A stretch of 4,254 bases of DNA from a virus (lineage: Duplodnaviria > Heunggongvirae > Uroviricota > Caudoviricetes): the IMG/VR virus record IMGVR_UViG_2703718809_000008. One strand, 5' to 3'. Positions 4,114-4,254 of this stretch are shown piece by piece. Below the pieces are notes generated by a model. That model was not told the DNA's origin. It saw only the letters and a list, made by a program, of their open reading frames with translations, and searched no databases. The position numbers and the translations under genes were made by a program. The first letter of the stretch is position 1; the number at the start of each line of letters is the position of its first letter.

Positions 4114-4134
4114 TTTGCCGGATGCGGCGTAAAC
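4114..4134. repeat. Left half of a REP/palindromic unit (PU), truncated by an insertion
   Basis: GCCGGATGCGGCGTAAAC matches the 5' half of the E. coli REP consensus (GCCGGATGCGGCGT[G/A]AACGCCTTATCCGGCCTAC). The expected continuation GCCTTATCCGGC is absent and replaced by TGAACTGCACCCC. Confidence 0.5.
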
Positions 4135-4254
4135 TGAACTGCACCCCAAATGTTGGACATAATCTGACATCTGAAGGTGCAGTTTATGAAACATTCATTT
4201 GAAGTAAAACTTGCCGCTGTAAATCACTACCTGGCTGGTCATGCAGGCATCATT
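4135..4254 (+). mobile_element. Left end of an IS3-family insertion sequence (IS150-group-like; possibly a REP-targeting IS1397-like element), truncated by window end
   Basis: Starts with TG (TGAACTGCACCCCAAATGTTGGAC), which resembles the IS150 left terminal repeat as I recall it (TGTACTGCACCCATTTTGTTGGAC). Followed about 50 bp later by an orfA-like start. The insertion point is in the centre of a REP. Identity not verified against ISfinder. Confidence 0.5.
4186..4254 (+). CDS. IS3-family transposase OrfA, N-terminal fragment (runs off the window)
   Basis: MKHSFEVKLAAVNHYLAGHAGII resembles the N-terminus of IS150-group OrfA proteins (compare IS150 InsJ ...FEKRLEVVNHYF...). AAGG RBS at 4174-4177. 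Only 23 codons are visible. Confidence 0.45.
   Translation, partial: MKHSFEVKLAAVNHYLAGHAGII

Follow-up and report, generated by a model that had tools for sequence, protein, structure and literature searches.

The window, by which is meant the whole stretch of 4,254 nucleotides analysed here, runs from the remnant of a lambda-type prophage across the ybhC gene and ends within an insertion sequence that occupies a palindromic unit (PU, or REP) in the spacer between ybhC and ybhJ (Table 1). The ybhC gene is intact and lies upstream of this element, identified below as IS1397, in the same orientation. Past the ybhC stop codon the left arm and the loop of a Y-type PU are found, and at the end of the loop the sequence changes over to that of IS1397. 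The preliminary description of this DNA had placed an IS element in the centre of a REP unit at positions 4114-4254, an interval that is correct to within 3 bases, and the strings quoted from it are accurate.

Table 1. Features recognised in the window, with positions counted from its first letter.
Feature	Position	Strand	Basis or remark
Terminus of another insertion sequence	1-27		ggtggccaaatttactgtgccactaca
PAPS-reductase-family gene	82-960		292 aa
Gene for a hypothetical protein	957-1301		114 aa
Xis ORF	within 1326-1634		72 aa, starting at the internal MYLTLQEW
int	1612-2682		
lambda att core	2756-2770	-	exact GCTTTTTTATACTAA
ybhC	2817-4100	+	427 aa, pectinesterase-family lipoprotein; ORF and Pfam PF01095; annotated ybhC in all matching genomes; TAA stop ends at 4100
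PU left arm and loop	4117-4134		GCCGGATGCGGCGTAAAC, 17 bp past the ybhC stop
PU left stem arm	4117-4129	+	GCCGGATGCGGCG; empty-site allele GCCGGATGCGGCGTAAACGCCTTATCCGGCCTAC in relatives
PU loop bases TAAAC	4130-4134	+	left target-site duplicate predicted as AAAC (4131-4134) or AAC
IS1397 (IS3 family), first 120 bp	4135-4254	+	120/120 identity to complete copies; RefSeq 'IS3-like element IS1397 family transposase'
IS1397 left inverted repeat (IRL)	4135-4159	+	TGAACTGCACCCCAAATGTTGGACA, starting with the IS3-family 5'-TG; in complete copies the right end (TGAACTGAACCCCAAAACCTGGACA) agrees with it at 21/25 positions
Hairpin with 9-bp perfect arms	4137-4184	+	arms AACTGCACC (4137-4145) and GGTGCAGTT (4176-4184); repeat search and RNA fold
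orfA Shine-Dalgarno region	4173-4179		GAAGGTG
IS1397 orfA, first 23 codons	4186-4254	+	MKHSFEVKLAAVNHYLAGHAGII; ATG at 4186, ORF runs off the window end

The lambda att core between int and ybhC marks attL; the prophage is of the lambda type and occupies the classical attB in the ybhC-ybhB interval. Upstream of xis and int are two genes, one of the PAPS-reductase family and one hypothetical, both 100% identical to genes of lambdoid prophages at the same attB in many E. coli. The first bases of the window are the terminus of a further IS element. In the four genomes that match the window throughout positions 1-4134, this terminus abuts a truncated IS3-type orfA fragment, together with IS30/IS3 debris in place of the remaining lambdoid prophage, and all other prophage-bearing genomes match the window from base 28 only. 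The presence of an IS terminus and of debris in place of the remaining prophage indicates that the prophage at this locus is an IS-truncated remnant.

The nature of the IS1397 target is apparent from relatives in which the site is empty. Four complete genomes (M7424, M00057, M11957 and CNREC_004-43) are 100% identical to the window over positions 1-4134 and then diverge from it. In relatives identical up to this switch point the palindrome is completed by its second half, CGCCTTATCCGGCCTAC. An intact PU (GCCGGATGCGGCGTAAAC-GCCTTATCCGGCCTAC) is present both in M7424, the one of the four that was read through the site, and in 118UI. In these two genomes the empty allele is followed, 15 bp further on, by an inverted PU (GTAGGTCGGATAAGATGCGCCAGCATCGCATCCGAC) and then by the 3' end of the convergent ybhJ gene. 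The partner of the left stem arm reads CGCCTTATCCGGC and, for the copy studied here, is expected past the IS, outside the window. A Y-type REP or PU within a BIME (bacterial interspersed mosaic element, in which PUs are clustered) was taken to be an imperfect palindrome of ~35 bp of the GCCGGATG...CATCCGGC type that has a CTAC tail on its 3' side, lies outside genes and has an inverse neighbouring PU. The empty allele shows all of these between the convergent ybhC and ybhJ genes, and the window itself includes no more of the PU than its left arm and loop. The full palindrome of the relatives thus confirms the earlier assignment of the left sequence to a REP arm, and the empty site contains precisely the second REP half predicted at that time, GCCTTATCCGGCCTAC. 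The break, after GCCGGATGCGGCG-TAAAC, falls within the loop region (4 nt) of the uninterrupted palindrome, so that the proposed insertion into a REP loop is also correct, the loop being that of a PU of the ybhC-ybhJ BIME. When folded as RNA, the intact BIME gives -53.6 kcal/mol (z = -8). A scan of positions 3900-4254 for sigma-70 promoters and terminators found none, and the window as a whole gave no Rfam match at E <= 1.

As the site is empty in backgrounds identical over 4.1 kb, the comparison of genomes marks the insertion as recent. It is likewise strain-specific, as the preliminary description had supposed, since the closest genomes, 100% identical over positions 1-4134, keep an intact PU. 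Database records with the exact arrangement of the window were not found, and the exact left-junction pattern gave 0 matches among genome contigs. Among metagenome contigs it gave two, and in both IS1397 occupies the same loop position of another PU that shares this left arm, not that of the ybhC locus. A look-up of the exact ybhC protein returned 10 places, all with either an empty site or IS1397 in the reverse orientation.

From position 4135 the sequence reads TGAACTGCACCCCAAATGTTGGACATAATCTGACATCTGAAGGTGCAGTTT, without a mismatch to active-looking copies of IS1397. A megablast search with positions 4136-4254 against 5426 complete E. coli genomes located 5457 places in 1720 of these genomes (best E = 8e-55), and 1341 records of the same set match at an identity of at least 99%, under features annotated as IS1397; the match is not a chance one. 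The 120 bp in the window agree at 120/120 positions with four complete annotated IS1397 copies, including those in the cysE-trmL, ugpB-livF and mpl-yjgA spacers, and at 119/120 with three further copies. Complete copies, which were fetched from several genomes and delimited by their ends, are 1432 bp long, begin with TGAACTG..., finish with ...CAGTTCA (thus ending in CA) and carry inverted repeats that agree at 21/25 positions. The ORF that had been described as orfA-like starts at the annotated start of the IS1397 transposase: its ATG at 4186 is IS position 52, which begins the annotated transposase CDS in eight loci fetched from other genomes. In a complete copy from M7424, identical to the window over the shared 120 bp, an OrfA of 173 aa runs from this position, a slippery heptamer (A AAA AAG) is located at IS position 525, and the OrfAB fusion comprises 449 aa. 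This fusion contains HTH_28, HTH_21 and rve (DDE) domains and scores 387 bits against the NCBIfam model of IS3-family transposases (cut-off 160). Taken together, the 120/120 identity and the coding features of the complete copies argue that the element is IS1397 itself, and not a mere IS3-like relative. On these sequence grounds what follows position 4134 is IS1397, which sharpens the previous identification of an IS3-family left end. IS1397 was reportedly described by Bachellier, Clement, Wilde and Hofnung in 1997-2003, and we take it to belong to the IS150 group (ISfinder).

These data leave next to no room for the view that nothing was inserted and that the locus carries a divergent REP variant, or that it was entered by some other REP-targeting element such as ISKpn1 or IS621. 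Such explanations are refuted by the empty allele in identical backgrounds, and the 120 bp are 100% identical to annotated IS1397, including the start of orfA.

Among species-representative genomes the exact left end of IS1397 is found in two tiny contigs only, one from a Parasporobacterium MAG (1569 bp) and one from a Microbacterium isolate (415 bp), both with E. coli-type PU flanks. The former has gtgaaac before and gaacgcc after the IS, with no clean duplication, and in the latter, judged by eye, the end of an E. coli-like gene is presumably also present. Both contigs are probably E. coli contamination and, with their E. coli-type flanks, are silent on the host range of IS1397.

The position of the element within the PU is in accordance with its behaviour elsewhere. 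Six further distinct IS1397 insertions were examined, three of them at other loci, and all are situated at the centre of a PU with target duplications of 3-4 bp. In the cysE-trmL, ugpB-livF and mpl-yjgA spacers the duplications are of 3 bp (AAT, GTA and TGA, respectively), and the PUs hit at these loci include units of the GCCGGATG and GCCTGATG types. PMC1525189 states that experiments have established E. coli REP sequences as the specific insertion target of IS1397, and Klebsiella REPs as that of ISKpn1, and that the transposases themselves set this specificity. The PU-centred insertions with 3-4 bp duplications observed here agree with the specificity published for IS1397, and the loop preference that the preliminary description gave for the IS1397/ISKpn1 subgroup is thereby upheld for IS1397 by six additional insertions.

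Compared to known IS1397 copies, the element in the window has the same 5'-TG terminus, the same 25-bp IRL and the same orfA start at IS position 52, and it is likewise inserted in the middle of a PU that belongs to a BIME. No difference is detectable over the visible 120 bp, and what is new among the 5426 complete genomes is solely the combination of site and orientation. ISKpn1 of Klebsiella pneumoniae shares the IS3-family architecture and the strategy of PU-loop insertion (PMC1525189). It is nevertheless a different element with a preference for another type of PU, and is set apart here through the 100% identity of the visible 120 bp to IS1397. REPs are also specific targets of IS621 (IS110 family) and of ISPpu9, ISPpu10, ISPsy8 and ISPa11 of Pseudomonas, again according to PMC1525189. 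ISPsy8 is likewise an IS3-family element, whereas IS621, ISPpu9, ISPpu10 and ISPa11 carry transposases of unrelated families (IS110, IS4 and others) and differ in their chemistry. IS621, moreover, lacks terminal inverted repeats of the IS1397 kind, whereas complete IS1397 copies encode an IS3-type DDE transposase.

The explanation we favour, with a probability of about 0.9, is that the first PU of the ybhC-ybhJ BIME has received a 1432-bp IS1397 in its central loop by transposition, in the orientation of ybhC, and that the left 120 bp of this element are what the window contains. Following the general biology of the IS3 family, the OrfAB transposase would be produced via a -1 frameshift at A AAA AAG and would excise a circular copy of IS1397 in a copy-out, paste-in fashion. 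The transposase would then recognise the PU itself and integrate the copy in the loop with a staggered cut of 3-4 bp, in line with the work on IS1397 cited in PMC1525189. With such a cut the right junction is expected to be ...GGGGTTCAGTTCA joined to AAACGCCTTATCCGGCCTAC, that is, ...GGGGTTCAGTTCA followed by AAAC (or AAC) and GCCTTATCCGGCCTAC. In a longer form, the right end should read ...CTGTCCAGGTTTTGGGGTTCAGTTCA followed by AAAC (or AAC) and GCCTTATCCGGCCTACGGTTCGATGCG, or ...CAGTTCA and then (A)AACGCCTTATCCGGCCTAC and ybhJ.

A different outcome beyond the window, although improbable, would be that the junction is real and the IS is truncated to a solo left end, or that it marks a rearrangement breakpoint formed by recombination between two IS1397 copies, the far end of which would adjoin a different PU half and not ybhJ. 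The element is visible for 120 bp, the nearest relatives have ~8 IS1397 copies able to recombine, and a degraded (frameshifted) IS1397 occupies the same site in 382634_2f and EC12. The other end of the window (1-27) is also an IS terminus, at an IS-mediated truncation of the prophage. Such a rearranged or incomplete element is to be set against the 11 copies located at the four loci examined, all of which (11/11) are 1431-1433 bp long with matching flanking duplications, and against the absence of mismatches between the visible part and active-looking copies. Even less probable is an assembly artefact, in which the last ~120 bases of a short-read contig would have been misattached from a repeat and the real PU would be intact. 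Both ends of the window do lie within IS termini (1-27 and 4135-4254), as in a contig broken at repeats, and no public genome with the same arrangement was found. A genuine IS insertion, however, normally also leaves contigs that end inside a repeat, and the join places the IS, precisely from its first base (TG), at a loop base that IS1397 uses in other genomes (after AAAC). As the join reproduces a biologically exact junction, misassembly is unlikely.

An IS1397 in the ybhC-ybhJ PU is present in only 13 of the 5426 complete E. coli genomes, in four arrangements, each with a 4-bp duplication. A 305-bp query running from the end of ybhC through the PU arm into the IS was covered to more than 80% in one genome only, BH100 (97% identity). 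The mirror query recovered 12 genomes in which IS1397 is inverted relative to the window, and these were grouped by representatives fetched per identity band. In BH100 (+ orientation) the duplication is GTAA and the insertion is two bases to the left of that in the window. The other three arrangements are all in the - orientation and comprise the SCU-482 group (five genomes, duplication AAAC, same bond as in the window), the ETEC1738 group (three genomes, GTAA) and the group of 382634_2f and EC12 (four genomes, AAAT), the last with a PU variant and a frameshifted IS1397. In SCU-482 and S1-CAM-04-C the IS1397 resides at the very phosphodiester bond used in the window, with AAAC on both sides. 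The arrangement of the window (+ orientation, after AAAC) is none of these four. At position 4227, furthermore, the window has C and the ybhC-site copies that were read base by base (BH100, SCU-482 and S1-CAM-04-C) have T.

One explanation that was considered and rejected is that the window arose by recombination from a reverse insertion of the SCU-482 type, since crossing-over inside the IS cannot swap the terminus that abuts the left arm and since position 4227 differs. The unmatched arrangement, together with this constraint on recombination within the IS, makes the window a fifth independent insertion in the same loop. The comparison of arrangements thus gives at least five independent IS1397 insertions in the loop of the ybhC-ybhJ PU, the window included, which cover both orientations, two adjacent phosphodiester bonds and one PU variant.

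IS1397 is located 1.36 kb from the prophage-host junction, across ybhC. A functional link between the two was considered and rejected, as BH100 and 382634_2f have IS1397 in this PU but no prophage at attB. Since the PU is hit in such genomes also, the nearness to the prophage junction looks coincidental.

The insertion would separate the arms of the PU by 1.4 kb, with the consequence that ybhC transcripts would lose their 3' REP hairpin. Another hairpin is formed at the left end of the IS itself. Its predicted RNA fold reaches -31.7 kcal/mol (z = -3.7) and none of 200 shuffled sequences was as stable. The 3' arm of this hairpin covers the Shine-Dalgarno region of orfA. The stem would form only in transcripts begun outside IS1397, and the co-oriented ybhC is situated 35 bp upstream. 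In ybhC read-through transcripts the first bases of the IS would then pair with the ribosome-binding site of orfA and block the synthesis of the transposase. Devices against read-through expression of the transposase have been described in IS10 and IS50, and by analogy with these the hairpin is a plausible candidate for such a device in IS1397, one that would keep its transposase from being activated by read-through.

In all, IS1397 is a known element that acts here as described, and the insertion is a new instance with nothing novel about it. It tells nothing about the lambda-type prophage remnant nearby and carries little weight beyond annotation. The presence of IS1397 from position 4135 onwards explains why a short-read contig would end there. 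As a recent, strain-specific transposition, the insertion is usable as a lineage marker, and it provides one more natural example of the PU-loop specificity of IS1397, with the recurrent use of one PU being mildly noteworthy. A more speculative reading, which we consider rather doubtful, is that the ybhC-ybhJ PU is a preferred hot spot of IS1397 and that a co-oriented insertion 35 bp past the ybhC stop could measurably change the stability of ybhC mRNA. If the hot-spot reading were true, data from natural populations could define the rules by which the IS1397 transposase chooses among PUs.
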